Shown: positions 21,561-56,839, numbered from the stretch's first letter. The stretch: DNA of 64,000 nt from an uncultured Planctomycetaceae bacterium (GCA_964598535.1 CAZRCI010000005.1:66287-130286), one strand, 5' to 3'. Numbers and translations are program-made. The notes: a model not told the origin generated them from the letters alone.

Positions 21561-23135
21561 CTAATCCCGCAATTGCCGGAGGAGTTGGCGCGCCGCGGCT
21601 GCCGGATCGGTCGCCGTGACAACCGTGCCGCTGACGGCAATGCGCGAACAGCCCGCGGCGAGCACCTGAGGCAGGTTGGCGGCGGAGATGCCGCCAATCG
21701 CGAACGTGGGCAGGCTGATTTCTTCGGCCACGGCGCGCAGCAACTCAGGACCGGTGAACTCGGTAAACGGCTTGGTGCCGGAAGGGAAGGTTGGCCCGAC
21801 GCCAAGGTAGTCGGCTCCGTCGAGCACGGCGGCGCGTGCCTGTTCAAGCGAGTGGGTCGAGACGCCAATGAGTCCGTGTGGGCCAAGAATCCGGCGGGCA
21901 TCTTTTACCGTGAGTTCTTCCTGGCCAACATGGACGCCATCGGCCCCGCTGAGCACGGCCAAGTCGGGCCGGTCGTTCATAATAAAGAGCGTGTTGGAAC
22001 CTTGCGTGGCACCCCGTAGGATCCGAGCCCGGGCGAGCAATTCGCGATCGGCGAGCTGCTTGTCGCGGAGTTGGACCATCGCAACGCCCGCGGTCATGAG
22101 CGACACAACGAGGCGCTGAAATGCGTCCGTACTTTTTCCGCCGTCGATGAGGACATAGAGTTGAGCGTCGGCCAGGCGTTCAAGGTTCAAACGCGTGATG
22201 TCGGTGGCGCGTTCCAGTGTGTAGACACGGTATCGCAACTGTTCGAGCTCAGCCGCCGCCTGGGGCGACATGGTCTTGGAGAATTCCTCGAGGCTGCGGA
22301 GCGATTGCTCGACGCGTTTGAAGCTGGCGACAAGCACCGCGGACAGGTCGCTTCGCTCGACTTCGCTGGGAAGGCTTAGCGAGGCGCCGACGTCGGCGCG
22401 GGTTTCACGAGCGGCGTGGCGGCTGCCACTCGGATAGGGATTCAGGACTTGGGTCAGATCGTGGCGAAGCTGTTTGGCCAGGCGCGTGAGGTGACGATCG
22501 TCGAGATGGAACCTTAAGTAGTCTTCGATCACGCGGAGGCCTTCGCCAGCCCGGTTGGCCGCCGCGTCGATGATGCGCATGACGGAGAGTTCGTCTCCGG
22601 CTGCCGGATCGATGAGGGTGGGCCGGTGCGGATTTTGGCGAAGTTCGGCCAGACTGCGCGGCTCATCGAGCTCCAGATCCAGGGGCTCGAGCGGAAGCGG
22701 GCCGGGTTCATGGCCGGCGAGGCGGTGGATTTCGGCTTCCAATGCCTCGACTTCGAGCCCACGTTCCTGGAGCCAGCGAGATACGTCGCTCTCAGCGACG
22801 ACCAGCGCCAGCAGCAGGTGTTCGGTAGCCAGCTCGAGCGGTTGTGGATACTCGACCAGCAGCCCTTCGACCATTCTCAGGCAGTGGTTCAGGGCTCGCG
22901 ACGGAGCACGGTTCTGGGCTGCCGCCGGAATTTCGCAAAGTGAGGGGAAGCGGCGGCGAACGCTAGCAGTATCGATTTCGTAACGCGCCAGGATAAGCGC
23001 AGCCCGACACTCGGGCTCGGATAAAAGGCCCAGGAGAACCTCGGGAAGGCCGAGTTCGTCAGATTCGTCAGAACTGATCCAACCGGCGGCGACGGCCAAA
23101 GCTCGTTCGGCGCCGGGCGTAAAAGTGCTTCGCAT
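21561..23135 (-). CDS. thiE: Thiamine-phosphate synthase fused to an N-terminal Clp_N-like double repeat and a middle helical domain
   Basis: The C-terminal ~210 aa are ThiE/TenI-like (VQLRDK, DGVHVGQEEL, YLGVGPTFPSGTK, FAIGGI). Residues 1-140 show two Clp N-domain-like repeats (FTPGAERALAVAAG...EVLLGLL and LATEHLLLALV). The middle domain (RIIDAAANRAGEGLRVIEDYLRF) resembles the N-terminal extension of long ThiE forms. Confidence 0.88.
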   Translation of the reverse strand: MRSTFTPGAERALAVAAGWISSDESDELGLPEVLLGLLSEPECRAALILARYEIDTASVRRRFPSLCEIPAAAQNRAPSRALNHCLRMVEGLLVEYPQPLELATEHLLLALVVAESDVSRWLQERGLEVEALEAEIHRLAGHEPGPLPLEPLDLELDEPRSLAELRQNPHRPTLIDPAAGDELSVMRIIDAAANRAGEGLRVIEDYLRFHLDDRHLTRLAKQLRHDLTQVLNPYPSGSRHAARETRADVGASLSLPSEVERSDLSAVLVASFKRVEQSLRSLEEFSKTMSPQAAAELEQLRYRVYTLERATDITRLNLERLADAQLYVLIDGGKSTDAFQRLVVSLMTAGVAMVQLRDKQLADRELLARARILRGATQGSNTLFIMNDRPDLAVLSGADGVHVGQEELTVKDARRILGPHGLIGVSTHSLEQARAAVLDGADYLGVGPTFPSGTKPFTEFTGPELLRAVAEEISLPTFAIGGISAANLPQVLAAGCSRIAVSGTVVTATDPAAAARQLLRQLRD

Positions 23136-37995: not shown

Positions 37996-39945
37996 TTAGA
38001 GCGGCTCGCCGTTCCAGCGCACGAAGCCTTCGAGGGCGAAGTATTCAGGGAGGCCAAATTGATTGTAAACCGCGGCCGTGTTGCGATTGCGGTCTTCGGC
38101 ACGCTGCCAGAACTCGCGCGGATCGTCCGGTCCCGGAAACAGGGCCGAGTCTTTTTGCGACTCGTGCATGAAGATCGCCTGGCGCTTTTGTCGCAGGTCG
38201 CGCGGCGAGAGCGGAATGGCGATTTCAATTTCGTGCGGAGCCCATTCCTGCCAGGCGCCGCGATAGAGCAGCACCTCGGGGCGCGAACCGGTGTCGCGTT
38301 CCAACTCGTACATTGCGCGGAAGATCGCTTCGGCACAAACGCGGTGTGTGCCGTGTGGGTCCGAGAGGTCGCCGGCCACATAGATCTGCGCCGGCTGTAC
38401 GCGCTCGACCAATTGACGAACGATCGCGACGTCTTCCTCGGTGATTGGCTTCTTGGCGATCGTGCCGGTTTGATAGAACGGCAGATCGAGAAAGTGCAGG
38501 TGCTCCTCGCGACAGCCGGCCACGATGGCGCCGGCCTTGGCTTCGCTCCAGCGGATGAGCGCCTTGATCTTGAGCACTTCGGGACTATCGCTCTCGCCGG
38601 CGCCCTTGGTGGCGACCGCCCGGGCCACGCTGTCTTCAAGGGCCGGGGAACGATCGCTATCGATGCCGAACAGGCGGTTATATTCGGTGACCATGTCGGC
38701 GATGCGCACGGCGTCGTGATCGAACACCGCGATGTTGCCGCTGGTCATGTAGGCGACGTGGACTTCGTGCTGGTCTTCGACCAGGCGGATGAGCGTGCCG
38801 CCCATCGAGATCACGTCGTCGTCCGGGTGCGGGCTGAAGCAGATGACTCGTTTATGCTCGCGGCCTGCCGGATGGTATTCGATCGTGTCCATCATCCAGC
38901 GAAACACGCGATGCGCCACGCGTTCCGCCGGGCCGTGATGACGCAGCAGTTGGTGCAGGTTGTGCTTGCGAAAGTCGTCGTCGTCGAGCATCAGCAGGGC
39001 CTTGCCCGACTGTTCGCAGAGCCAGAGCACGGCTCGCTTGATCAGGACGTCGGTCCATTCGACCTTGCCGAGCAGCCACGGCGTGGTCGTGGCGGTAAGC
39101 TTGCTGGCGGCGGCGGTATCGAGCAGCAGCGTGGCGTTGGCGTGCTCGCGCAGGTAGCAGGCGGGAACGCGCGGCGTGGCGGGGGCTTCGGCCGTTTCGC
39201 GAATCACGCCGGCTTTGTGTTCGCCCTGCGCGATGAGCAGAATCTTGCGCGCGTCGAGAATCGTCCCCAGCCCCATCGTGATGGCTTGTGTGGGAACATT
39301 TTCTTCGCTGAAGAAATCGCTGGCCGCGTCGCGCCGGGTGAGCGGGTCGAGCGTGCAGACGCGGGTCCGGCTGTCGCGCGTGCTGAACGGCTCGTTGAAC
39401 CCAATGTGGCCGTTGCGGCCGATGCCCAGGATCTGCAGATCGATGCCTCCGGCCTCGCGTATCTTGGCTTCGTACCAGCGGCAATAGTCGTCGAGTTTTT
39501 CGGGCGGGGTGAGCCCGTCGGGGATGAAAATGTTCTCGGGCTTGACGTTGATGTCCTTGAACAAGTGTTCGTGCATCCAGCGGCGGTAGCTTTGCAGGCG
39601 ATCTTCGCCGAGGCCGAGGTACTCGTCGAGGTTGAACGTGACGACGCCGGAGAAGTCGAGCCCCTCGTCCTTATGGAGCCGGGCAAGTTCGCGGTAGATG
39701 CCGACCGGCGTGCTGCCGGTTGGGAGACCGAGGACGGCCCGCTGTCCAAGCGCGGCGCGGTCGCGAATGACGCCGGCGATCATTCCGGCGACGAAGCGGG
39801 CAAGTTGTTCGTGCGAATCGAAGACGTACGTGGGGAGGGCGGTGCCCACGAGCGGGCCCAGTGGCGGCGTGTCGATCATCGGAGCAAGGAGGTTCCCAAA
39901 GCCATGTGGAATGGAACCATCGAGTATGGCGAATTGAGGGCGCAA
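37996..39945 (-). CDS. nagB: Long-form glucosamine-6-phosphate deaminase (NagB domain fused to LmbE/PIG-L-like domain)
   Basis: The N-terminal ~260 aa are NagB-like (LGLPTGSTPVGIY, FNLDEY, GIGRNGHIGFNEP). The C-terminal half carries the PIG-L signature (FSPHPDDDVISMGGT...HVAYMTSG). The start may instead be ATG 39879. Confidence 0.88.
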   Translation of the reverse strand: MRPQFAILDGSIPHGFGNLLAPMIDTPPLGPLVGTALPTYVFDSHEQLARFVAGMIAGVIRDRAALGQRAVLGLPTGSTPVGIYRELARLHKDEGLDFSGVVTFNLDEYLGLGEDRLQSYRRWMHEHLFKDINVKPENIFIPDGLTPPEKLDDYCRWYEAKIREAGGIDLQILGIGRNGHIGFNEPFSTRDSRTRVCTLDPLTRRDAASDFFSEENVPTQAITMGLGTILDARKILLIAQGEHKAGVIRETAEAPATPRVPACYLREHANATLLLDTAAASKLTATTTPWLLGKVEWTDVLIKRAVLWLCEQSGKALLMLDDDDFRKHNLHQLLRHHGPAERVAHRVFRWMMDTIEYHPAGREHKRVICFSPHPDDDVISMGGTLIRLVEDQHEVHVAYMTSGNIAVFDHDAVRIADMVTEYNRLFGIDSDRSPALEDSVARAVATKGAGESDSPEVLKIKALIRWSEAKAGAIVAGCREEHLHFLDLPFYQTGTIAKKPITEEDVAIVRQLVERVQPAQIYVAGDLSDPHGTHRVCAEAIFRAMYELERDTGSRPEVLLYRGAWQEWAPHEIEIAIPLSPRDLRQKRQAIFMHESQKDSALFPGPDDPREFWQRAEDRNRNTAAVYNQFGLPEYFALEGFVRWNGEPL

Positions 39946-44425: not shown

Positions 44426-46384
44426 ATGATCGTGACGCGCTTCCGCCTGACTTCATGTGCCTCGTTGCTCGTAATCCTCGCATCGCAGGTGGCCAGTTAC
44501 GGCGCGGTCCCCGCCTCGGAAACCTTGCTGCCGGCCACGACGAAGGCTTACGTTTCGATAGCGAATGTCGAAGAGTTTGAAGCCGCCTTCAAGAAGACGC
44601 AGTTGGGGCAGTTGGCCAGCGATCCGGAGATGCAGCCATTTGTCGAGGACCTCAAGCGTCAGCTCACCGAGCAATGGACCAAGACCCACGAGAAGCTGGG
44701 CATTGGCTGGGAAGACCTCGATGGCGTGCCGTCGGGCGAAGTTGCCATGGCGCTGTTGTTGCCCCGGGAAAATAAGGATGCCGTGGTGGTGCTGGCCGAC
44801 GTGACCGGGCGCGACGCCAAGACCGCCGACCTGTTGAAAAAAATCGACCAGAACATGACGGCCCGCAAAGCCGCGCGTAGCGAACGAACGGCCCAGGGCA
44901 CGAAGATCGTCATCTATAACATTCCCAAGCGCGACGACGTTCCGGCGCGGCAAGTGGGCTATTTCTTGAAGGACGGCTTGCTGGCGGCTTCGGACGATCT
45001 GGCGGTGCTCGAAAATGTCCTATCGCGGGCGGGCGGCGCCTTGCAAAGCGATAGCCTGGCGTCGTTCGCCGCTTATGCCGCGATCACGAAGCGTTGCGAA
45101 AAAGCCGCGGACGGTCTGGCTCCCCAGGCCCGCTGGTTTCTGGAACCCTTTGGTTATGCCGAGGCGATACGGATCGATCAGCCCAAGAAACGCGGCACCG
45201 ACATGCTGAAGATTTTGCGCACCGAGGGCTTCATGGCGATCGAGGGTGTGGGCGGTTTCGTCAATCTCTCGACGGACCGTTATGAACTCGTGCATCGCAC
45301 GTTTATTCATGCCCCCGGCAATCCATCGGGCGGCGAGCGATTTGAGCTGTCGGCTCGGATGCTGAAGTTCCCCAATGGCGGCGAGTTTACGCCGCCGGCA
45401 TGGGTTCCGCGCGATCTGGCATCGTACATCGCGGTTAACATCGATACGAAGAACGCCTTTGAGAACTCGAAGACTCTGGTGAACCAGGTTGTCGGCGATG
45501 AAGTGTTCGAGGACGTGCTCGAGTCGATCAAGACGGATGAAAATGGGCCGATGATCGATATTCGCAAGGATCTGATCGCATACTTGGGCAACCGGCTCAC
45601 GGTGATCTCGGATCTGCAAACGCCGATTACGCCCAAGAGCGAACGGTTGTTGATCGCGGTCGACACGAAAGACGAGAAGCATCTGGCAGGAGTCATTCGC
45701 GACTGGATGGAAACCGATCCCGACACGCGCCGCCGTGAGATCGCCGGCCACGTGGTATGGGAAATCGTCGACGAGCAGGCCGAGCTGCCAATGATCACGA
45801 TCGAAAATAGCCCGCTCGATCGTCCCTCGGAGGACGATGCGATCGAAGAAGAAGGCGAGCGGGCATTGCCCCCGAACTCGGCCGTGACCGTGGCGCATGG
45901 TTGCCTGCTGGTCGCCACGCACATCGACATTCTGACGAAAGTGCTGACCGAATTCGAAAACGGCGCCAAGCTGGCCGATAGCGCGGACTACAAACGCGTG
46001 GCCCAGGAACTGGCGGCCATCGCCCAGCAGGAGCAGTTCGGCCAGGCATTCACGCGAACGGACGAAGCGTATCGCGGCACGTATGAACTGTTGCGTACAG
46101 GCAAGATGCCCGAGAGCCAGTCGATGATGGGCAAGCTGCTCAATGCGTTGCTTGGCGACGGCAAAGAGGGCGTTCTCCGCCCGCAAAAGCTCGATGGCAG
46201 CAAGCTTCCTGAATACGACATGGTGCGGCGTTATCTTGGCCCGGCCGGCATGACGATGACCGCCGAACCGACGGGCTGGCTGCTGACCGGCTTTACGTTG
46301 ACCAAGGAAGCCGATTCGAGTCAGACGCCCGCCAAGGCTGAGCGTTTGACGAGCGAGACCAAGGCGGACACCGCGGTGAAATAG
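44426..46384 (+). CDS. Large exported hypothetical protein
   Basis: 652-aa ORF with AAGGAGAGG just upstream of the ATG and an N-terminal signal-like segment (LTSCASLLVILASQVASYG). Coding-type composition throughout. No family recognised. Confidence 0.8.
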   Translation: MIVTRFRLTSCASLLVILASQVASYGAVPASETLLPATTKAYVSIANVEEFEAAFKKTQLGQLASDPEMQPFVEDLKRQLTEQWTKTHEKLGIGWEDLDGVPSGEVAMALLLPRENKDAVVVLADVTGRDAKTADLLKKIDQNMTARKAARSERTAQGTKIVIYNIPKRDDVPARQVGYFLKDGLLAASDDLAVLENVLSRAGGALQSDSLASFAAYAAITKRCEKAADGLAPQARWFLEPFGYAEAIRIDQPKKRGTDMLKILRTEGFMAIEGVGGFVNLSTDRYELVHRTFIHAPGNPSGGERFELSARMLKFPNGGEFTPPAWVPRDLASYIAVNIDTKNAFENSKTLVNQVVGDEVFEDVLESIKTDENGPMIDIRKDLIAYLGNRLTVISDLQTPITPKSERLLIAVDTKDEKHLAGVIRDWMETDPDTRRREIAGHVVWEIVDEQAELPMITIENSPLDRPSEDDAIEEEGERALPPNSAVTVAHGCLLVATHIDILTKVLTEFENGAKLADSADYKRVAQELAAIAQQEQFGQAFTRTDEAYRGTYELLRTGKMPESQSMMGKLLNALLGDGKEGVLRPQKLDGSKLPEYDMVRRYLGPAGMTMTAEPTGWLLTGFTLTKEADSSQTPAKAERLTSETKADTAVK

Positions 46385-46526: not shown

Positions 46527-48872
46527 CTACGGCGAGAATTTTGCCCAGAAGGGGTGCTGGCGATCGCCGCGGGTGCGGACATCGTCTAAGAGCACGTTCA
46601 GGTTGGGCGAAACGTCGGCCGTGTGGCGGCGGCCTCCCAGGTGGACGTCGATCTTGTCGCGTCCGGGATTGAGCATTTCGGGCGCGAACCAGATCGTGGC
46701 GGAGACACCGGTGCCGGGCACGTAGATGTCGCCGTTGGCTTGGATCTTCGCGCGGACTTCCGCGGCGCGGATACCGCGACCGGGCGGCCAGTTGACCGGC
46801 TCGACGATCGAACGCGGCGGCAGCTTCTCGATTTCGAGCCACCAGAAGTAATTGTCCCAGGTTCGCATCGTGGTGACCGTGAACTCTTTGGGAAAGAAAT
46901 TCCGGTCCGGCTTGCGCGCCATCCAATCGAAGATCTCTTTTATCTCTTCATAGAAATCTTCGTGGCCGCGGCCTTGATACTCGACGACCGTGACGTCGTG
47001 GCGGTGAACCATATAGCGATCGAGATCGCGCGAGTTTTCCTTCAGCTTGTCGCCGTCCAGCTCGCCACACACGAGATAGAATGGCACCATGCCCGCGTTC
47101 GGCCAGTAGTGCGAGCAGTATTTCTTGCTTTGGGCAACGATTGGAATGACGCCCGCCCAGAGATCCGGATGCGCGAGCCCGATATCCCAGGCCGCGTCTC
47201 CGCCGGCGGAGTGCCCGGAAAGAAACACACGGTCGGTGTTGATCGAGAACCTGCGGCAGGCGTCGCGGAGACTGGCGAGCACCGTGGCATGCTCCCGGGC
47301 CGAAAAGCCGTAATCGCGTTGGCCCTCGGTTAGCCAATTGACGGCGATCACGATATAACCGAAGCGGCTGGCCTGTCCCAGACGCTGGCCATTGTCCATT
47401 CGGGCACCGGCCCACCAGTCGATTTGATGCTCGGGCGTCGAGCCCACGCCGTTCAGGGTGACGATCGTGGGATAACGCACATAGGGATCGTATTCTGGCG
47501 GAAGCTGCACGTAGTAGGTCGCGTCGGGCTCGGTGTCCATCCCGATCGGCACTTGCAGCGTGTGGAAGCCCGGCGTTTCGGCCGAAGAAGCCGGCGTTTC
47601 CAGCGGGGGCTTCATGTGGGCAATGAGCTTGGCCACCAGCGAAATCGCGGCGCCTTCCATCGTGCGTAGCTCTTGCTCGATCTCGTTTCTTCGCAAGGCC
47701 ACGGGCTCGTTCATGTAGCGGCGGATCAGGTCGCGCACGCGGGCCGTCGACGCGGTGACCAGCAGGCTGGTTTCCGCGGAGTCCGCGCCAAGCAGCCAAC
47801 CGCTGATCGCAATCGACAGCCGTTGCTCGTCCGTGAGGCTCTTGTCGTCGCGCAAGCGGAAGTAGCCCGCAAGGCGATCGAAGTTGCCCAGGCTCATCTC
47901 GGCGGCCATCTCATTGATGATGGCTTCGCAGGTTGCGCGGTCGGGACCGTCCGGCAGGACTTCCACGAGTTTGTGGAGTTCGGCGGCGACCAGGTCGCGG
48001 CGCTCGCGCACCTGTTCATATTGCTGGACCATCTCGCGCACTTGAGCAAGCGTTTCGCCCGCGACGTCGTCGGTGGGAAAGTTTTGCAACAGGCCGTAGG
48101 CCAAAAAGTGCTGGCCCGACTTGCGCCGCAATTCGATTTCCTCGACGATGCTGCGGGCATGCATCTGGCGCAGCGAGCGGACCTCGGTCGCAAGTTCTCG
48201 CTGATCCGGAAAGTCGGCGATGACGACTTCCAGTTCTTTTTGAGCGTCCTGATAGCGCTCGGCTTGAAGGAGCAAGCGGACGACGCGCAGGCGAGCGTCG
48301 AGATTGTTTCGCGAGGCGTTGTTGACCAGGATCTTGTGCAGCGTGTCGCGCGGAATGGAGCTGGTGGCGATACGCATGTCCCAATTGAGCGGCGTAAGCT
48401 GTGAGGTTTGCAGCCCTTCGACCTTGGTCCAGCGCGGCGTGACGAGCGTGATTCCCTGAATAATATCGAGCGGCCCCTTGTCGGTATTCATGGTGAACAC
48501 GCGACGGCCGTATTCGTCGAAAGGAGAGACTTTGAGAATGGGGCCGACCCGATTCACGCGCCCGCCACCGCTGGCGGTACGCTGGTTGATCGCTACTTTC
48601 TCGAGAATGCCGCCCGAGTTCACCTCGTCGACCGCCTGAATCTGTGAGGTGGGCACGAACACGCGCCGCAGGTCGTCGTCGATGAACGTGATGGTGGCCG
48701 GGACGCCTTGCTGGTTGTTCTGCGGGTTGTCGGCCAGTCCCGCGGTCTTACCGAGCCGGCCGGTGAGCCGGCGGCCGTCCTTCATGATGACGTTCGAGCC
48801 GAACGCGTCAGCAGCGTTTAGAAGCAGCGCGAGGGCGACAAACAGTCGCAAACTGGGACGACACAGGTTCAT
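46527..48872 (-). CDS. Large exported protein with C-terminal alpha/beta-hydrolase (esterase/peptidase-like) domain
   Basis: Start taken at MNLCRPSLRLFVALALLLNAADA (signal peptide). A nucleophile-elbow GHSAG (VFLSGHSAGGDAAW) lies in the last third. The middle is helical and TPR-like. Confidence 0.8.
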   Translation of the reverse strand: MNLCRPSLRLFVALALLLNAADAFGSNVIMKDGRRLTGRLGKTAGLADNPQNNQQGVPATITFIDDDLRRVFVPTSQIQAVDEVNSGGILEKVAINQRTASGGGRVNRVGPILKVSPFDEYGRRVFTMNTDKGPLDIIQGITLVTPRWTKVEGLQTSQLTPLNWDMRIATSSIPRDTLHKILVNNASRNNLDARLRVVRLLLQAERYQDAQKELEVVIADFPDQRELATEVRSLRQMHARSIVEEIELRRKSGQHFLAYGLLQNFPTDDVAGETLAQVREMVQQYEQVRERRDLVAAELHKLVEVLPDGPDRATCEAIINEMAAEMSLGNFDRLAGYFRLRDDKSLTDEQRLSIAISGWLLGADSAETSLLVTASTARVRDLIRRYMNEPVALRRNEIEQELRTMEGAAISLVAKLIAHMKPPLETPASSAETPGFHTLQVPIGMDTEPDATYYVQLPPEYDPYVRYPTIVTLNGVGSTPEHQIDWWAGARMDNGQRLGQASRFGYIVIAVNWLTEGQRDYGFSAREHATVLASLRDACRRFSINTDRVFLSGHSAGGDAAWDIGLAHPDLWAGVIPIVAQSKKYCSHYWPNAGMVPFYLVCGELDGDKLKENSRDLDRYMVHRHDVTVVEYQGRGHEDFYEEIKEIFDWMARKPDRNFFPKEFTVTTMRTWDNYFWWLEIEKLPPRSIVEPVNWPPGRGIRAAEVRAKIQANGDIYVPGTGVSATIWFAPEMLNPGRDKIDVHLGGRRHTADVSPNLNVLLDDVRTRGDRQHPFWAKFSP

Positions 48873-48929
48873 GCAAGGCTCTTCTGGACCTGGTGCCTCA
48901 CGCGAGCGCAGACTCAATCGCGCTCGTGG

Positions 48930-48962
48930 CGGACAGAATGCGTCGGCACGGACAGAATGCGT
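48930..48962. repeat. 14-bp direct repeat x2 upstream of the 781-aa exported-protein gene
   Basis: CGGACAGAATGCGT at 48930-48943 and 48949-48962, with a 5-bp spacer. It lies 58-90 nt upstream of the ATG at 48872. Confidence 0.6.
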
Positions 48963-49243
48963 TCTTCTCTGTGGGATTGTACGCCCGCCGGGGTTCCGGG
49001 CCTGCAAGCGTTCCCAGATTTTATTGTGTTCGAGGCCGAGGGAGAGTCAACCGGGGAAGGCTCGCCGGACAAGCAGAACTGGCTGCGGAAAAACCGGCAT
49101 AATACGACGGCCTGACGCGAGTCTTTTGCGGCAATAACGAATTCGTGCTCCGTCGTTTCGGGGGTAGCCTTTTTTGGGGGAGAGCGAATAAATCTCTATC
49201 GGGCTGCTGAAAAGGGTCACGACGGCCCTTCGTCGGCAACCTG

Positions 49244-51193
49244 CTAGCCCGGCGTGTCGAGATAGGGGTCCTGGCCCATCTGGAGTTGGAGCTTTTTCCG
49301 CTCTTTCTCGTGATACATAAGCACTTTGCGATCGAGGAAGTGGCGTTTTTCCAACTTGTACTGGGCCCGGTTGAATATTTTGGCCAGGTGATCGTAGCGT
49401 CCGGGATTGTCGTGGCCAAATTCATGGTAGTGCTTGGCCTTGTCCGGCCCGAGGCCCAGTAGCAGTTCGTCTTCCAGCGAGAGGTAGACACGGTACGAGC
49501 CGGGGTCGCCCTGACGACCGCAACGCCCGACGAGTTGCCGATCGATGCGGGCCGAGTCGTGCATTTCGGTCATGATCACGTGTAGACCGCCGAGTTCGTG
49601 TACGCCTTCGCCCAGCTTGATGTCCGTTCCGCGGCCGGCCATGTTGGTCGAGACGGTGACTCGGCCTTGGCGACCTGCCTTGGCGACGATCTCGGCTTCC
49701 TCGGCGATGTGGTTGGCGTTCAAGACGTCGTGATCGATGCCACGTTGCTTGAGCAGGTGCGAGATGATTTCCGACTTGTCGATGGTGCGCGTGCCGATCA
49801 GCACGGGCCGGCCCGTGGCGTGAACCTCGATCACCTCATTGACGATCGCGTGCCACTTTTCTTCTTCGGTTCCGAAGACATAATCGGGCAGCCGTTGGCG
49901 AATCGCCGGGCGGTTGGTGGGAATTTGCACGACCCGGAGCTTGTAGATCTTTTTGAGCTCGCCGGCCGAGGTGATGCCGGTACCGGTCATGCCGGCCAGA
50001 TGCGGATAAAGATGGAAGTAGTCCTGGACGGTGATTCGCGCGGCCTGGCCCGCCTCGGCCGTGACCTCGACGTCGGCTTCTGCGGCTTCGACGGCTTGGT
50101 GGAGTCCTGCGCGCCATTTGCGTCCTTCTGCGGCGCGACCGGTGAATTCATCGACGATGACAACCTCACCATCGCGAACGACGTACTGGCGGTCGCGGAT
50201 GAACTCGCGGTCGACCTTGATCGCGCGTTCGATGTATTCGTAAATGCTGAACATGCCGACGGCGTGCATTTCATCGGGTTTGGGCAGGTTCCGCACCAGA
50301 CGCCGCCCCTCGGGCGTTAGTTCCACGCTTTTGCGTTCGTGGTCGTAGTCGTAATGTTCGTCCTCTTTAAACTGATTGGCGACGCCAGCAGCCCATTTGT
50401 AGCACTCGACGGCGATGAGCTGCGCCTCGCTGGGCAACGCGCTGATGATGAGCGGCGTGCGAGCTTCGTCGATCAAGATGCTGTCAGCCTCGTCCACCAG
50501 CACGAAATACGGAGTGCGCTGCACGGGGCGTTCGCCGCCTTCGCCGCTCATGCCGAGCATCGCGCCCAGGAAGTCGGTTTGACCTTCGCCGATGCGGCGC
50601 ATCAACAAGCGATCGCGCAGAAAGTCGAAGCCAAACTCCTTGGCCGTGCCATAAGTGATGTCGCACTCGTAGGCCTTGCGGCGCTGGTTTTGGTTCATTT
50701 GGGTTTCGACGATGCCGACCGTGATGCCCAGGCTCTCATAGAGCGGTTTCATCCACTCGGCATCGCGCCGGGCGAGATAGTCGTTGACCGTGGCCAGATG
50801 CGCGCCTTTGCCCTCGAGCGCGGCCAGGTAGAGCGGCAGCGTAGCGGTAAGCGTTTTGCCTTCGCCCGTTTGCATCTCGGCGATCGAGCGATTGTGCATC
50901 GCGATGCCGCCCAGGATCTGCACGTCGAAATGACGCATATTGAGCGTGCGGCGGCCGGCTTCCCGCACCAGGGCGAACGCCTCGGGCAACAGCCGCTCCG
51001 AGGGCTCGTGGCTCTTGAGCCGGTACCGGAGCGAAAGGCTCCGCTTGCGCATGTCGTAGGCGTTGAGATTTTGGAGCTCTTCTTCGAAACTCGCCACCTT
51101 AGGCAATACAGATTGCCAATGCGCAAGCTGGCGGTGGGCCATGCCGCGAGAGACGGATTGCAGGCTCGAACGCAGGCTATCGGCTATCGACAT
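49244..51193 (-). CDS. secA: Truncated SecA-family ATPase (SecA paralogue, about 649 aa)
   Basis: Start taken at MSIADSLRS. Motifs: Walker A MQTGEGKTLTATLP; DEAD-like LVDEADSILIDEARTPLIISA; NBD2 GRPVLIGT...TNMAGRGTDIKLG...GRCGRQGDPGS. The protein ends about 80 aa after NBD2. Confidence 0.9.
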   Translation of the reverse strand: MSIADSLRSSLQSVSRGMAHRQLAHWQSVLPKVASFEEELQNLNAYDMRKRSLSLRYRLKSHEPSERLLPEAFALVREAGRRTLNMRHFDVQILGGIAMHNRSIAEMQTGEGKTLTATLPLYLAALEGKGAHLATVNDYLARRDAEWMKPLYESLGITVGIVETQMNQNQRRKAYECDITYGTAKEFGFDFLRDRLLMRRIGEGQTDFLGAMLGMSGEGGERPVQRTPYFVLVDEADSILIDEARTPLIISALPSEAQLIAVECYKWAAGVANQFKEDEHYDYDHERKSVELTPEGRRLVRNLPKPDEMHAVGMFSIYEYIERAIKVDREFIRDRQYVVRDGEVVIVDEFTGRAAEGRKWRAGLHQAVEAAEADVEVTAEAGQAARITVQDYFHLYPHLAGMTGTGITSAGELKKIYKLRVVQIPTNRPAIRQRLPDYVFGTEEEKWHAIVNEVIEVHATGRPVLIGTRTIDKSEIISHLLKQRGIDHDVLNANHIAEEAEIVAKAGRQGRVTVSTNMAGRGTDIKLGEGVHELGGLHVIMTEMHDSARIDRQLVGRCGRQGDPGSYRVYLSLEDELLLGLGPDKAKHYHEFGHDNPGRYDHLAKIFNRAQYKLEKRHFLDRKVLMYHEKERKKLQLQMGQDPYLDTPG

Positions 51194-51399
51194 GAACACA
51201 CCGAAGAAACATGCGGACGGAAACCTCCCGGAAGAGCCACGCAACGCGTTGAATCGCAAATCAAGGCATTGCGACTAACAGACTTATTCTATCTTACGGC
51301 GGCCCGCTATTGCTGCAATTGGCCGATTTTTCCGCCTGCGCGGCCGCCATGAGCCTTCCCAGCGTTGTCGAGCATCGCCAGCGTGGAGATAGGCAGTTT

Positions 51400-52755
51400 T
51401 TAGCGGGTCTGCCGAGTGATTTTGCCGATCGCGTAGTGCGGGGCAAAACCGCCGGCCGACGCCCCATCGACCAGGGTTCCTTGGACTTCGACGAGCTCAC
51501 CCGGCTTCAGATCGTTCAGAGCAGGGGAGTGGACCAAGATGACGCTGCCGCCGTACCGGTCTGTCTGACCGTCGATAGGGATGTATCGTAACTTCCATTG
51601 CCGCTGCGAATTGGAGTATTCGAGCCGGCCGCGGAGCGTGCGGTAGTCGGGAGTGTGGCCAAACGTCGCGCTCGCCGCGCCGGAAGCCGCCGGCTGAAAC
51701 GCCGCTTGAACGACGGCGTTTGAGTGGGAAGCCTCGGGCGGGGATACGAACTTTGCGACATTGCCGTTGCTAGACGCCGTGGACACGGCCAGGTTCTGTC
51801 CCGACGCCGGAGCGTTTTCGACCGTCGTGCGAACCGTGGGCGTGGCCGCGCCCGCGGTGATCCGCAGCACGGAAGAATTGCTCGGCGGTTCGAAGGGCAT
51901 CTTGGGAGCGAGCGCTACCTGCGATGTGGGAGACGACGCTACGAGCGGTGAAGTAGTCGGAGGCGAGGACTCGCCAACGATGCGCAACGAGTTTCCTTCA
52001 GCATGCGGGGTAACTGAGAACGGTCCAGGCGGGTCGCCCCGGCTCGTACCCAGACTGAGACGCGTCGGAGCGGTGACCGGCGGTTCCAAGGGCTTGGAGA
52101 CAGGCTGGCGCGGAAGCGGGCTGGCTTGAGCAAGCGGTTGCGCGACCGGAGGCGCGGCCGCTGACGGCGAGGGATCGGGGCGGAGTGCCCTAGGTTCTTG
52201 GGACGCCACGCCGGTCTCGCTGGCCTTCGCCGTCACATAGGGATTTTCGATAATCGGCGCCGGCGACATTGGGCCGGAAACGCGAATCGGAGCCGGTTGA
52301 ACATAGGTTGCCTGAGTAACGCTCGCGGGGGCGCTCGCATCGCCTGGGGGCATGATGCCACCGGCCAGTCGCACCGCGTTGGCGGCAGGCACTTCTGGAG
52401 GCGGATCGTTCGAGCTTTGATGGAACAAGAAGGACCCGCCAGGGTATCGGAACTGATCGCCCTGAGGGGTCACAGTGGGCGGCGTTGCCATTGGCGCAAC
52501 GGCTGGCGGTGCAACAGGACTCACAGGAACCGGCTGCGTCGTTACGGGGGCCGGAGTGGTTACGACTGGCGCAGGCTGAGTCACCATCGGCGGTGAGATG
52601 CCCTGAGCATACGGTTGGCCCGGAGTGACCAGTACGCCCGAGGACGTGGTTGGCGGAGTGACCGTGGTTCGCAAGAACGGGTTCGTCGCCGGCTGATTCG
52701 ATTGGCAACTTGCCAATGTGGCGGCGGTCAGTAGGACCACCCAGTACCGCTTCAT
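51400..52755 (-). CDS. Pro/Thr/Val-rich lipoprotein with a globular C-terminal domain
   Basis: Start MKRYWVVLLTAATLASC (lipobox LASC). About 350 aa of P/A/S/T/V-rich low complexity, then a ~90-aa conserved-looking domain (LRGRLEYSNSQRQWKLRYIPIDGQTDRYGGSVILV). Confidence 0.7.
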   Translation of the reverse strand: MKRYWVVLLTAATLASCQSNQPATNPFLRTTVTPPTTSSGVLVTPGQPYAQGISPPMVTQPAPVVTTPAPVTTQPVPVSPVAPPAVAPMATPPTVTPQGDQFRYPGGSFLFHQSSNDPPPEVPAANAVRLAGGIMPPGDASAPASVTQATYVQPAPIRVSGPMSPAPIIENPYVTAKASETGVASQEPRALRPDPSPSAAAPPVAQPLAQASPLPRQPVSKPLEPPVTAPTRLSLGTSRGDPPGPFSVTPHAEGNSLRIVGESSPPTTSPLVASSPTSQVALAPKMPFEPPSNSSVLRITAGAATPTVRTTVENAPASGQNLAVSTASSNGNVAKFVSPPEASHSNAVVQAAFQPAASGAASATFGHTPDYRTLRGRLEYSNSQRQWKLRYIPIDGQTDRYGGSVILVHSPALNDLKPGELVEVQGTLVDGASAGGFAPHYAIGKITRQTR

Positions 52756-53013
52756 CGGACGAACTCCTTTTCGTCGAGGTGTGCGGCTGCTAACCAATAG
52801 GCGATCGGTCGTGAGGAGCCCTTGTGCAAACCCTCACGGCCGAAATAGATGCGCAACCGACTTATTCGATCGAACGTGTGAACACACGGAAGGACAGGGA
52901 TCTTCCCCCTGCGCATAGGCAGGGGGCGAATAGAATAGCGAATGGCGTGGGTTGGTCCAGAGCGGTTTTAGTGGCGCGGACCGCCGCCCCGTGGACCGCG
53001 ATCGCGCCCGATG

Positions 53014-53463
53014 CTACTTGCTGCTAGCAGTTTGGGCTGCCTGGACAAACGGATTGTAGTAGATCCGCGGCAGACTCGCCGTATGATCGACCGGCGCGGC
53101 GACCGGAGCCGGAGTGGCCGTTTGCTTATTTTCCGGTGCCGAGGCGGGCGTCGTCACCGGTTCGACAAACGGGTTCTGGTACTCGACGGATGCCATCTTG
53201 GGTGCGGCTGCGGGAGTTATCGTTCCCGGCGGATAGGCAAACGGGCTATAGCCGTAGGTGCGCGCGACAGGATAGCTATAGTAGACCGGAGGAAACATCG
53301 AGTAATACGGCACGCGGTAGACATTGGCATACGAGCGCGAGCCATAGTTGAAAAAGCCCAACCCGTAGCCCCCCGCACCAAATTGAGCCGCCGCTTCGGA
53401 AGTCTGCAAACTCATTGCCAGAAGCACGCCACAACCGATCCACAGACTTGCTCGACGAAACAT
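53014..53463 (-). CDS. Small exported Tyr/Pro/Gly-rich protein
   Basis: 149 aa with signal peptide MFRRASLWIGCGVLLAMSLQTSEAAA. It contains 15 Tyr, 12 of them within about 45 residues. Confidence 0.65.
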   Translation of the reverse strand: MFRRASLWIGCGVLLAMSLQTSEAAAQFGAGGYGLGFFNYGSRSYANVYRVPYYSMFPPVYYSYPVARTYGYSPFAYPPGTITPAAAPKMASVEYQNPFVEPVTTPASAPENKQTATPAPVAAPVDHTASLPRIYYNPFVQAAQTASSK

Positions 53464-53565
53464 GACACGCGACCTCGCATGACGAAGCGGATAAATGGTC
53501 TACCTTTCGTGCAGGGTATTTAGCGGGTTTGGGTATTGCAATCGTTAAAATAGGAAAAACAGGAT

Positions 53566-53832
53566 CTATTTTTCTGCTGGCTCGGGATTCGAGGAGTTTG
53601 TATCGGGCTGGGCGGGTTTGCCGCCAACTGGTGGAGTGTCCGCGGTTTGTGGGGCTGGGGAGGGGGATTCAGTGGACGGCTGGAGCTCGGGCAGCGGATA
53701 AGGCTGATTCAGGTGGGCTGGAACCTCATGGATAAGCTTGCCGTATTTCGGATTATCGAGCGAGGGTTCGCCGCAGCCAGTCACCATCAAGAGTGAAACG
53801 GCCGCGATACGCGCGGAACTGCTGGCCACCAT
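53566..53832 (-). CDS. Small Pro-rich lipoprotein
   Basis: Start taken at MVASSSARIAAVSLLMVTGC (lipobox VTGC), giving 88 aa. The longer ORF-track start would overlap queG. Confidence 0.55.
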   Translation of the reverse strand: MVASSSARIAAVSLLMVTGCGEPSLDNPKYGKLIHEVPAHLNQPYPLPELQPSTESPSPAPQTADTPPVGGKPAQPDTNSSNPEPAEK

Positions 53833-53907: not shown

Positions 53908-55050
53908 ATGTCCGATCAAACGCTTACCTCCGCGCTCAAAGCCGAAGCCAAGCAGCTTGGTTTCACGCTAGCCGGGGTGTGCGCGGCGGTCGAGCCGGCG
54001 GGAATCAGCCGTTTTGGCGAGTGGCTCGCCGCGGGTTATGCGGGCGAGATGCACTATCTCTCGGGACGCGCCACGGCGTATTCGCATCCGCGTTACGTTC
54101 TGGACGGTGCGCGAAGTATCGTCATGCTTGGCTTTCCGTATCGTACTTGCGAGCCCATGGTCGCTCAACCGGCGCAAGGGCGCGTGGCCCGTTACGCTTG
54201 GGGAGCAGACTATCACGACATATTGTGGCAGAAGCTGAAGACGCTGGAGCGGTACTTGCTGGCGCGAGCGCCCCAGGCGGCGGTGCGCACGGTCGTCGAT
54301 ACCGCGCCGCTCTTGGAGCGCGAGTTCGCGCAGCTTGCGGGGGTCGGTTGGATCGGCAAGAACACCTTGCTTCTCAATAAACATGAGGGAAGTTATTTCT
54401 TCCTGGCGGCGTTGCTCACCAGCCTGGAATTGGAGGCCGATGTGCGGCACGAGGCCGAGCATTGCGGCACATGCCGGGCATGTCTCGATGCGTGTCCGAC
54501 AGATGCGTTTGTCGCGCCTTACGTACTCGACGCGCGGCGGTGTATCAGCTATCTGACAATCGAGCTCAAGTCGCCCATTCCAACCGAACTGCGTACCGGC
54601 CTGCAAGATTGGGTGTTTGGCTGTGACGTGTGCCAGGAGGTTTGCCCCTGGAATCATAAGCCGCGGACAACCGCGGAACCGTCGCTTCGGCCTCGCGATG
54701 AAACGACGCTCGACCTGGTTCAACTGTTCTCACTCGATGAAGCAGCATTCCGCGCGAAGTTTCGCGACACTCCGCTATGGCGGCCCAAACGCCGCGGTAT
54801 CCTTCGCAATGCAGCGATTGTACTCGGAAATCAGCGAGCGGCCGAAGCGATTCCAGCGCTCATGCGTGGACTCGACGATGACGAGCCATTGGTGCGCGGG
54901 GCGTGCGCGTGGGCATTGGGGCGATTTCACGAACCATCCGCAATCGCCGCGCTGCGTGTACGATTCGACGTCGAACGAGACGCGGCCGTGCATGCAGAAA
55001 TCGCCGCGGCGCTCGGACTCGCGTTGCCGAGCTCGCTGGAAGGAGAGTAA
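53908..55050 (+). CDS. queG: Epoxyqueuosine reductase
   Basis: 380 aa with Fe-S motifs CGTCRACLDACPTDAF and CDVCQEVCPWN, plus C-terminal HEAT-like repeats (DDDEPLVRGACAWALGRF). Confidence 0.93.
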   Translation: MSDQTLTSALKAEAKQLGFTLAGVCAAVEPAGISRFGEWLAAGYAGEMHYLSGRATAYSHPRYVLDGARSIVMLGFPYRTCEPMVAQPAQGRVARYAWGADYHDILWQKLKTLERYLLARAPQAAVRTVVDTAPLLEREFAQLAGVGWIGKNTLLLNKHEGSYFFLAALLTSLELEADVRHEAEHCGTCRACLDACPTDAFVAPYVLDARRCISYLTIELKSPIPTELRTGLQDWVFGCDVCQEVCPWNHKPRTTAEPSLRPRDETTLDLVQLFSLDEAAFRAKFRDTPLWRPKRRGILRNAAIVLGNQRAAEAIPALMRGLDDDEPLVRGACAWALGRFHEPSAIAALRVRFDVERDAAVHAEIAAALGLALPSSLEGE

Positions 55051-55963: not shown

Positions 55964-56839
55964 CTACTTGGCGGCTTTAAGGTGTTCGTCGAAGAAATTG
56001 AGCGTGGCTTGGATGGTGCGTTCCATTTCCTGGCCGGCCCAGCCGTGTCCGGCTCCGAGCAGCAACTCCACGCGGCCCGGGACTTCGGCCCGGGTAAGTG
56101 CGTCGACGATGATATAAGCCTGATCGTGTGAGACGAGCGGATCCTTCGTGCCAAAGAAGCAGAGCAGGGGGGCATCGCCTTTGGAGATGTACGTCAGCGG
56201 CGAGGCCGTTTTGAGTTCTTCCTGCTTTTCCTTCGGATCGGCGCCGAGCCAGGCCGTGAGGATATGCGTTTGAGCGGGCGTGTAGTTGTCTCGCGGCAGA
56301 TGGACCGGACCAACGAAGTTCACCACGGCCTGCACCTTACTCGATTGTTCGGAGTTGCCGCCATCGCCTTCCATCCCATCGGCTGAGTCCATGAGGCCGA
56401 GCATCATCGAGAGATGGCCGCCAGCCGATCCGCCCACCGCGCCGATGTACTCCGGATCGATGTTCAATTCCTTGGCATTCGCACGCAGATAGCGAACGGC
56501 CGCCTTGGCGTCTTCGATCTGGGCAGGAAAACGATGCTTGGGCGCTAAGCGGTAACTGATCGTTGCGGCCACAAAGCCGTGCTCGGCCAGCCGCTCCGCC
56601 AATTGAGCCATGTCTTGCCGTTTGCCCGCCATCCAGCCGCCACCGTGAATCACGACGATTGCCGGCACCGGGTGATCCAGCCCTTGGGGAGAATAGAGGT
56701 CGAGTTCGAGCCGATGATCGCTGACAGTCGCGTAGGCGACGTCCTTTTGGGATTCAATTGCCGCTTTTTCTTCAGCGTGTAAATTCGCACACGAGGCCAC
56801 GGCAATCACGAATGTTCCGAGTAGAAGAAGCCGATGCAT
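55964..56839 (-). CDS. Alpha/beta-hydrolase lipoprotein (esterase/lipase, HGGG type)
   Basis: Lipobox VASC in the signal peptide, oxyanion motif VIHGGGW and nucleophile elbow GGSAGG. Confidence 0.88.
   Translation of the reverse strand: MHRLLLLGTFVIAVASCANLHAEEKAAIESQKDVAYATVSDHRLELDLYSPQGLDHPVPAIVVIHGGGWMAGKRQDMAQLAERLAEHGFVAATISYRLAPKHRFPAQIEDAKAAVRYLRANAKELNIDPEYIGAVGGSAGGHLSMMLGLMDSADGMEGDGGNSEQSSKVQAVVNFVGPVHLPRDNYTPAQTHILTAWLGADPKEKQEELKTASPLTYISKGDAPLLCFFGTKDPLVSHDQAYIIVDALTRAEVPGRVELLLGAGHGWAGQEMERTIQATLNFFDEHLKAAK

Follow-up and report, generated by a model that had tools for sequence, protein, structure and literature searches.

Canonical SecA inserts its two-helix finger into SecY and binds SecB and lipid through its C-terminal tail. 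A SecA from which both the wing domain and the two-helix finger are missing is usually an engineered fragment (N68), made in the laboratory for dissecting the motor; SecA-N68 is reported to display a deregulated ATPase and no translocation activity. The SecA2 proteins of the SecA2-only systems keep the scaffold and the two-helix-finger region (M. tuberculosis SecA2 keeps IRA1), lose mainly the helical wing domain (HWD) and are thought to serve a few clients through the general SecYEG channel; the genes for these clients generally do not neighbour secA2. Another group, called 'secondary SecA_DEAD domain proteins', was described by Kamneva, Poudel and Ward in 2015 (PMC4452313). Their genes sit with those encoding HlyD-like, Peptidase_M50-like and GAF-HlyD proteins, sometimes also OEP (TolC), and the same work proposed a type-I-secretion-like machine with the SecA_DEAD protein as its ATPase and with partners that may be encoded elsewhere in the genome, while a canonical SecA was reported in all planctomycete genomes examined there. 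No later work on this clade was found in the literature searched. The subject here is a short SecA of this kind, encoded in a 64,000-nucleotide (nt) stretch of DNA from an uncultured Planctomycetaceae bacterium (GCA_964598535.1 CAZRCI010000005.1:66287-130286), together with the small exported proteins encoded next to it. The whole stretch is called the window; all coordinates are based on it, and the view of this genome is confined to it.

The short SecA is a conserved natural protein, and its gene is the last member of a conserved unit of four genes, G, F, E and short secA, which is found in that order across Pirellulales, with queG as its divergent border. The elements of the locus, including two neighbours that do not belong to the unit, are as follows:

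53566-53832, minus strand: G, open reading frame (ORF) of 88 amino acids (aa) from its ATG; small lipoprotein, first gene of the conserved cluster
53014-53463, minus strand: F, ORF of 149 aa; exported Tyr/Pro-rich protein
51400-52755, minus strand: E, ORF of 451 aa; lipoprotein
51286-51318, minus strand: promoter-like element in the E-secA spacer, recognized by conservation only
49244-51193, minus strand: short SecA, ORF of 649 aa
46527-48872, minus strand: C, ORF of 781 aa; exported protein with TPR-like and alpha/beta-hydrolase parts, lineage-specific neighbour
44426-46384, plus strand: B, ORF of 652 aa; exported DUF3352 protein convergent on the cluster, lineage-specific neighbour
53908-55050, plus strand: queG (tRNA epoxyqueuosine reductase, TIGR00276); divergent, conserved left border of the cluster

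A preliminary description of the window had reported five co-directional minus-strand genes, G to C, and a convergent gene for a 652-aa protein. All six ORFs were found, and the intergenic gaps, given there as 100-370 bp, measure 102, 258, 206 and 371 nt from G to C. The compositional bias that it had noted was also recovered (G, 18% Pro; F, 12% Pro and 10% Tyr; E, 16% Pro and 9% Thr, and rich in Pro/Ala/Ser/Thr overall), as was a GHSAG motif in the 781-aa protein, at residue 553. Its claim that every member other than SecA carries a signal peptide or a lipobox agrees with a crude N-terminal scan, in which G, F, E, C and B all have a positive n-region followed by a hydrophobic h-region, with lipoboxes VTGC in G and LASC in E. 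Signal-type N-termini were detected in 7 of the 37 window genes scanned, and since 5 of these 7 lie in the G-F-E-C-B stretch, exported genes are clustered here above the local base rate.

The short SecA matches the Pfam families SecA_DEAD (6e-107), P-loop_SecA (4e-59) and SecA_PP_bind (3e-29), with no Pfam match to SecA_SW. Its domains are arranged in the order NBD1-PPXD-NBD2, followed by one long scaffold helix (aa 601-638, window 49280-49393) and a conserved tail of 11 aa, MGQDPYLDTPG (window 49247-49279); a clade-specific insertion at aa 204-229 (window 50507-50584) is disordered in the AlphaFold2 (AF2) model. The ATPase motifs are intact throughout (Walker A, DEAD motif, arginine-finger region, motif VI), with GEGKT at residue 110, DEAD at 234, TNMAGRGTDI at 516 and GRCGRQG at 556. 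The HWD, the IRA1/two-helix finger and the C-terminal linker/tail are absent, and alignments with SecA structures in the PDB, which run to query residue ~630, break off inside the scaffold helix, near residue 601 of B. subtilis SecA (802 residues). The AF2 model, built with 56 sequences (pLDDT 88, pTM 0.82), likewise shows the single helix 601-638 followed by the tail. A Foldseek search with this model returned SecA structures only, among them E. coli SecA-N68 (5k9t), the best TM-scores being those of SecY-engaged SecA.

A protein ~250 residues below canonical length could be the product of a truncated secA pseudogene or of an assembly artefact. However, its catalytic motifs are intact, the AF2 model is confident, and its length and C-terminal motif are kept in the best 120 homologues listed, every one of which has 614-725 aa and is at least 68% identical to the short SecA. 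The length and the terminal GQDP(Y/H)LD are likewise kept in 28 of 29 related genome loci, which come from metagenome-assembled genomes (MAGs) of Pirellulales, and no C-terminal extension restoring HWD/IRA1 via a frameshift or a split gene was found in 30 loci. Among the top 150 representatives from an exhaustive search at 50% identity, 64 are shorter than 720 aa, with a GxDPxL-type tail in 34 and an LxFxG-type tail in 11. Because length and C-terminal motif are conserved among relatives, the short SecA is neither a truncation artefact nor a broken gene; the pseudogene explanation is refuted, and the chance left to it is negligible.

With regard to family, the short SecA falls below the cut-offs of the housekeeping SecA models (TIGR00963, 700.2 bits vs 800; NF009538, 702.1 vs 814), of the accessory Sec SecA2 model TIGR03714 (590.3 vs 930) and of the SecA2-only models for mycobacteria (TIGR04221, 479.7 vs 725), Listeria (NF012136, 455.3 vs 1100) and B. 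anthracis (TIGR04397, 641.4 vs 1085). These scores bear on the analogy drawn in the preliminary description to SecA2 systems, i.e. to the Gram-positive SecA2/SecY2/Asp or the mycobacterial-type system. A second SecA-like ATPase beside low-complexity exported proteins, with glycosyltransferase genes 4-10 kb away, would be in keeping with such a system. Against it, every SecA2 NCBIfam model is missed by a wide margin, SecY2 and Asp genes were not found among the window ORFs scanned (as the preliminary description itself had remarked), the truncation is much deeper than that of M. tuberculosis SecA2, whose structure 4uaq is only a lower-ranked match, and the tree described below places the protein with short SecAs linked to type I secretion systems (T1SSs). 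Membership in the SecA2 group is refuted, so that the analogy fails at the level of family and only a functional one remains; that the locus is nevertheless a SecA2 system of either type is extremely improbable.

A neighbour-joining tree of the motor region unites the window SecA and the T1SS-linked SecA of Methylosinus in one clade of 55 representatives (39/40 bootstraps), all shorter than 720 aa and with no canonical-length SecA inside. The two proteins are 48% identical over residues 29-577, have an insertion after FDFLRDRL in common and share RIDRQLxGRC where canonical SecA has NQLRGR, whereas the C-terminal tail of the Methylosinus protein is unlike that of the window protein. Within the clade, proteins with a GxDPxL tail (window, Gimesia, Pirellulaceae) group apart from those with an LxFxG tail, and both LxFxG-type contexts examined (Methylosinus and locus L043) are T1SS-like. 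The Methylosinus plasmid locus encodes a giant LamG protein, a DUF3467 protein, an HlyD-like adaptor, a 716-aa membrane protein, the 638-aa short SecA, a second adaptor and TolC. On this plasmid, pMSC49a (L030:1-12118), the T1SS-like operon comes after an ~8,800-aa LamG-domain gene and the DUF3467 gene, and its short SecA is labelled 'prepilin peptidase' and its M50-like membrane protein 'PqqD family protein', both apparently mis-annotations.

The window protein thus combines the absence of SecA_SW with a place among short T1SS-linked proteins, two properties of the secondary SecA_DEAD group, whereas neighbours of the HlyD, M50, GAF-HlyD or TolC type were not found next to its gene in the 64-kb window; a scan of the larger window ORFs for SecY, Asp, HlyD, Peptidase_M50 and OEP/TolC returned none. 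An M50-like ORF just upstream of secA was seen once in the 29 related loci, in L024, a deviant locus of a different sub-branch (51% identity). The window SecA is a member of the known secondary SecA_DEAD clade, in a sub-branch whose context is unlike the published one. The short SecA family itself has been known since 2015 and is not new; a conserved pairing of a short SecA with G, F and E was not described in the literature searched.

The context of this sub-branch was established by comparing the window proteins with 29 genome loci (51-93% SecA identity; labelled L001 and so on) by tblastn and ORF clustering; ~22 kb was visible per locus, and counts out of 30 include the window. In 24/30 loci the gene immediately upstream of the short secA gene is E; F is present in 19/30 and queG is adjacent in 17/30. 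Seen from distant E homologues, five of six contexts carry the order queG, small gene, F-like gene, E, secA, and wherever an F-containing metagenome locus offers enough flank (five cases), E and a short secA are found downstream. The metagenome scan with F comprised eight loci only, as the derived patterns were too specific; it agrees with the other synteny data and adds little breadth. In L013, L020 and L029 E is still next to secA, F and queG being no longer adjacent. The most distant case is a Pirellulaceae MAG, with a SecA 45% identical to that of the window, in which a 397-aa E-like lipoprotein is encoded 12 nt upstream of secA and beside queG; past its lipobox this protein has the layout of E (C-Q..., PF, PPPPTG, then P.DPY). 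Gene order, proposed in the preliminary description as the feature to be checked, is therefore conserved beyond close relatives for G-F-E-secA, whereas C and B are neighbours of secA only at 93% identity. As a conserved association, the idea of a neighbourhood organized around the short SecA holds for three of the five neighbours and not for the 781-aa and 652-aa proteins.

Sequence conservation within the three small proteins indicates that G, F and E are constrained proteins and not merely low-complexity ORFs, and no Pfam or NCBIfam family was found for any of them. G is marked by the motif C..P.LD.P.YG.(L/V)I..(V/L)P......PYPLPEL, with a Pro-rich tail after it. Matches to G by tblastn were obtained in the same position in L001-L003, L005, L018 and L044-L050, motif-bearing orthologues occur in L003, L009, L010, L017 and L018, and G was found by one or the other route in at least 14 loci; every E-side context retrieved has an unannotated gene of 65-104 aa between queG and F. 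In an alignment of 22 sequences, the F core PYYxxFPPVYYSYPVARTYGYSPFAYPPG is nearly invariant and is accompanied by two NP(F/Y)V motifs. The NPF(L/V) or NP(F/Y)V motif occurs on the minus strand once directly past the lipobox Cys of E (~52680-52725) and twice in F (~53020-53060 and ~53150-53190), and it is kept across E and F orthologues; we know of no bacterial reader of it.

E carries a NPFLRTTVPPPGTG..PG.PY segment directly after the lipid-anchor Cys, which is conserved across orthologues, and then a long Pro/Ala/Thr-rich linker with a PPGGS...QSS motif. The conserved parts of the protein lie at its N-terminus, and the C-terminus is variable. The C-terminal domain (~aa 365-451, window 51403-51663), which occurs in many lineages, is confidently predicted to adopt an OB fold, the AF2 model of aa 345-451 showing five strands and one helix (mean pLDDT 83). 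Foldseek searches with this domain gave generic OB-fold matches only, with E-values no better than 2e-3 and TM-scores of ~0.45-0.5; the top match was potempin A, a lipoprotein protease inhibitor, and as all matches were weak no function was assigned on this basis. The OB domain is absent from E of the closest relatives (93% SecA identity: L001:8652-9776, L002, L044 and L045) and present in more distant ones, a distribution that points to a recent loss in the sister lineage or to a variable module. The E family is small, with 121 matches among 5.8 billion proteins and no Pfam domain. This rarity was counted in favour of a functional module, because a lineage-specific partner is expected to be rare.

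Between E and secA, one block only is conserved. In 18 aligned spacers, TTGCAG/TGTCAA and TAAGAT/TACAAT/TAGAAT stand in register, 16-17 nt apart; the window has TTGCAG, 16 nt, TAAGAT and then AGAAT, ~98 nt upstream of the secA ATG. The element was not called by a generic sigma-70 scan, so that its promoter-like status rests on conservation only. Because this element precedes secA, the gene can presumably be transcribed on its own. A scan of 46.3-54.2 kb for promoters and terminators gave counts at or below shuffle expectation and hence no information on operon structure, and an Rfam search of 44-55.5 kb gave no matches at E-values up to 0.1.

The spacer also bears on a regulatory explanation modelled on secM-secA, in which the ribosome would stall on E unless E is exported, thereby controlling translation of the downstream secA. 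As in secM-secA, an exported ORF lies right upstream of secA, and E holds PPP and PPG strings, which slow translation. Nevertheless, the stop codon of E is 206 nt from the secA ATG, with the conserved promoter-like element in between and neither an Rfam match nor a conserved structured element in the spacer. Moreover, E varies at its 3' end, with an OB domain that is found here and gone in the closest relatives, and it is the N-terminal and not the C-terminal parts of E that are kept. A SecM-like monitor is therefore considered very unlikely.

That an E-like lipoprotein gene stays immediately upstream of the short secA gene even between deeply diverged relatives marks E as the foremost candidate for a client or partner of the ATPase. 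In general, the conservation of G-F-E-secA is compatible with a functional link to the short SecA, and dedicated export of G, F and E by this protein is a plausible possibility. With its intact motor and PPXD clamp, the short SecA would be able to bind ATP, to hydrolyse it and to hold a preprotein. It would not, on its own, be expected to drive translocation through SecY in the manner of canonical SecA; since the parts by which canonical SecA acts on SecY are missing, it would have to cooperate with another machine. The short SecA may accordingly act as a cytoplasmic, ATP-driven handler that binds, holds or unfolds a few precursors, which could then be handed over to a membrane machine encoded elsewhere, either the housekeeping SecA/SecYEG, on the model of SecA2-only systems, or a conduit of the M50/HlyD/TolC type, on that of the sister branch. 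The likeliest clients would be the co-conserved exported proteins, first E, which is ranked so because its conserved NPFLRTTVPPPGTG motif sits right after the signal peptide, and then F and G. A functional G-F-E-short secA module with the short SecA as a specialized precursor handler is the reading that we favour, and we hold it tentatively, at somewhat less than an even chance. A bolder version, in which a Pirellulales-specific accessory export route depends on the short SecA reading the NPFLRTTVPPPGTG motif of E, the NP(F/Y)V motifs of F and G itself before delivery to a channel, appears unlikely.

Several observations weigh against the functional module. In L015, L019 and L021 (65-68% identity) secA lacks E as a neighbour, as it does in the GxDPxL-tail contexts of Gimesia, P0241 and P0243, so that the ATPase is not tied to E everywhere, and no secA was seen near the E-like protein P0208. 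The contexts of P0241, P0243, P0250 and Gimesia contain neither G/F/E nor T1SS genes; no single context defines the GxDPxL sub-branch. The functionally unrelated queG is conserved beside the block and dus recurs nearby, which indicates that the synteny is in part simply inherited within a single order. Obligate co-transcription is made less likely by the promoter-like element of secA and by gaps of 100-260 nt. Finally, the sister branch works in T1SS-like loci, and the real partners may lie elsewhere in the genome.

In an alternative explanation the gene order is inherited and not functional, the short SecA serving partners encoded elsewhere (most probably M50-like/HlyD/TolC components, as in the sister branch, or else giant secreted proteins) and G, F and E being ordinary Sec/Lol substrates that happen to be encoded beside it. 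Apart from the retention of queG and dus in the block, the promoter-like element of secA and the loss of E beside secA in the three loci L015, L019 and L021, this alternative is favoured by members of the same clade in T1SS-like operons (Methylosinus, next to the giant LamG protein, L043 and L024) and by the Gimesia orthologue, which has giant RTX-type proteins as neighbours and no E or F. On the other hand, E remains adjacent to secA after queG and F have been lost (L013, L020 and L029), and this adjacency extends down to 45% SecA identity, where the spacing is 12 nt; the linkage is almost exclusive when seen from the E and F side; and M50, HlyD and TolC were unseen both in the window (64 kb) and in 28/29 related loci within the ~22 kb visible. 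Inheritance alone deserves serious consideration as an explanation, and we hold it to be only somewhat less probable than the functional module.

The Gimesia orthologue (L038:9001-10941; 47% identity, GLDPYLE tail) is monocistronic. Beside it (L038:1-8346), two divergent genes encode giant secreted proteins, 1652 aa and 1541 aa in length, of which one gives a HemolysinCabind (RTX) match; they are reminiscent of type I secretion substrates.

The remaining neighbours of the short secA gene in the window, C and B, are recent and lineage-specific and stand outside the conserved unit. The N-terminal half of C is TPR-like and its C-terminal half is an alpha/beta-hydrolase, with sub-threshold Pfam and NCBIfam matches to esterases/polyhydroxybutyrate (PHB) depolymerases only, and it is adjacent to secA only in L001, L002, L044 and L045, all at 93% SecA identity. 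The synteny of B, for which Pfam gives DUF3352, is confined to L001 and L002. On the far side of the cluster, the assignment of queG rests on TIGR00276 (353 bits vs a cut-off of 200). Another exported alpha/beta-hydrolase is encoded 2 kb past queG (55964-56839, minus strand), namely an esterase of the BD-FAE family with 291 aa and the lipobox VASC; with C included, this lineage alone has two secreted hydrolases close to the cluster. Behind the short secA, most relatives have on the same strand a DUF6348 gene (~228 aa) and a gene for C7, a protein of ~650-790 aa with no Pfam match, a Pro/Ala-rich N-terminal part and helical repeats (e.g. L034:9259-12102, L010:12734-15079, L028:908-3229 and another 14 loci). 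The two genes are possible members of the ancestral cluster and are absent from the window and from the closest relatives. A TolC-like nature of C7 was considered and rejected, as hhalign against the Methylosinus TolC gave a probability of 1.2% and neither Pfam nor a PDB profile search gave a match.

The rest of the window is ordinary chromosome, including a nuo operon, lpxB, a Clp ATPase gene, mla genes, purB, queG, an rnk-like gene and glycosyltransferase genes. Two fusions were observed in it. A 524-aa ORF (21561-23135, minus strand) joins a Clp_N match to ThiD2 and thiamine-phosphate synthase (TMP-TENI) domains; the Clp_N part is an odd N-terminal addition to a thiamine biosynthesis fusion and may reflect an over-extended ORF start. 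A 649-aa ORF (37996-39945, minus strand) combines a glucosamine-6-phosphate isomerase/6-phosphogluconolactonase-like part with a PIG-L part (GlcNAc-PI de-N-acetylase family), and the 727-aa plus-strand ORF overlapping it, without a family match, is probably a shadow ORF.

Compared with described systems, the locus is closest in its ATPase to the loci of Kamneva and colleagues (PMC4452313), with which it shares a second SecA-like protein composed of SecA_DEAD, PPXD and NBD2 and with the wing/scaffold lost or fragmentary. It differs from them in that HlyD, M50, GAF-HlyD and TolC are not seen in 64 kb and that the conserved neighbours are three small exported proteins absent from that report, and it differs from the T1SS-linked members examined, with their LxFxG tail, in having a GxDPxL tail. 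The branch of PMC4452313 appears to replace the ABC ATPase of type I-like secretion, and the present branch has three tightly conserved exported neighbours, so that two or more distinct genomic lifestyles occur in the family. Concrete candidates for clients or partners are thereby available in G, F and E; if the link is only syntenic, the finding amounts to another member of a known, uncharacterized family.

As a protein, the short SecA resembles E. coli SecA-N68 (5k9t) in having the DEAD motor and the PPXD without the HWD, IRA1 and C-terminal tail. Unlike that engineered fragment, it is natural and conserved, and it keeps most of the scaffold helix and a terminal motif. The natural version raises the question of what a SecA motor does without the parts thought to contact the substrate or push it into SecY. 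The streptococcal/staphylococcal accessory Sec system (SecA2/SecY2/Asp1-3) shares with the window an ATPase gene beside low-complexity exported proteins, which are clients there and candidates here, whereas SecY2, the Asp proteins and a serine-rich glycoprotein were not found here and the TIGR03714 score is 590 vs 930. In the accessory Sec system the mature N-terminal region of the client contributes to recognition, which offers an analogy for the post-signal motif of E. The SecA2-only systems of mycobacteria and Listeria, also with a second, smaller SecA paralogue, are the closest functional model for the proposed module, although the window SecA misses their family models and is without the two-helix-finger region. 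If the bolder version, a Pirellulales-specific accessory route with motif-based recognition of G, F and E, is correct, client-specific export of the SecA2 type would have a Gram-negative counterpart here, based on a SecA that would be unable to translocate in the canonical way.

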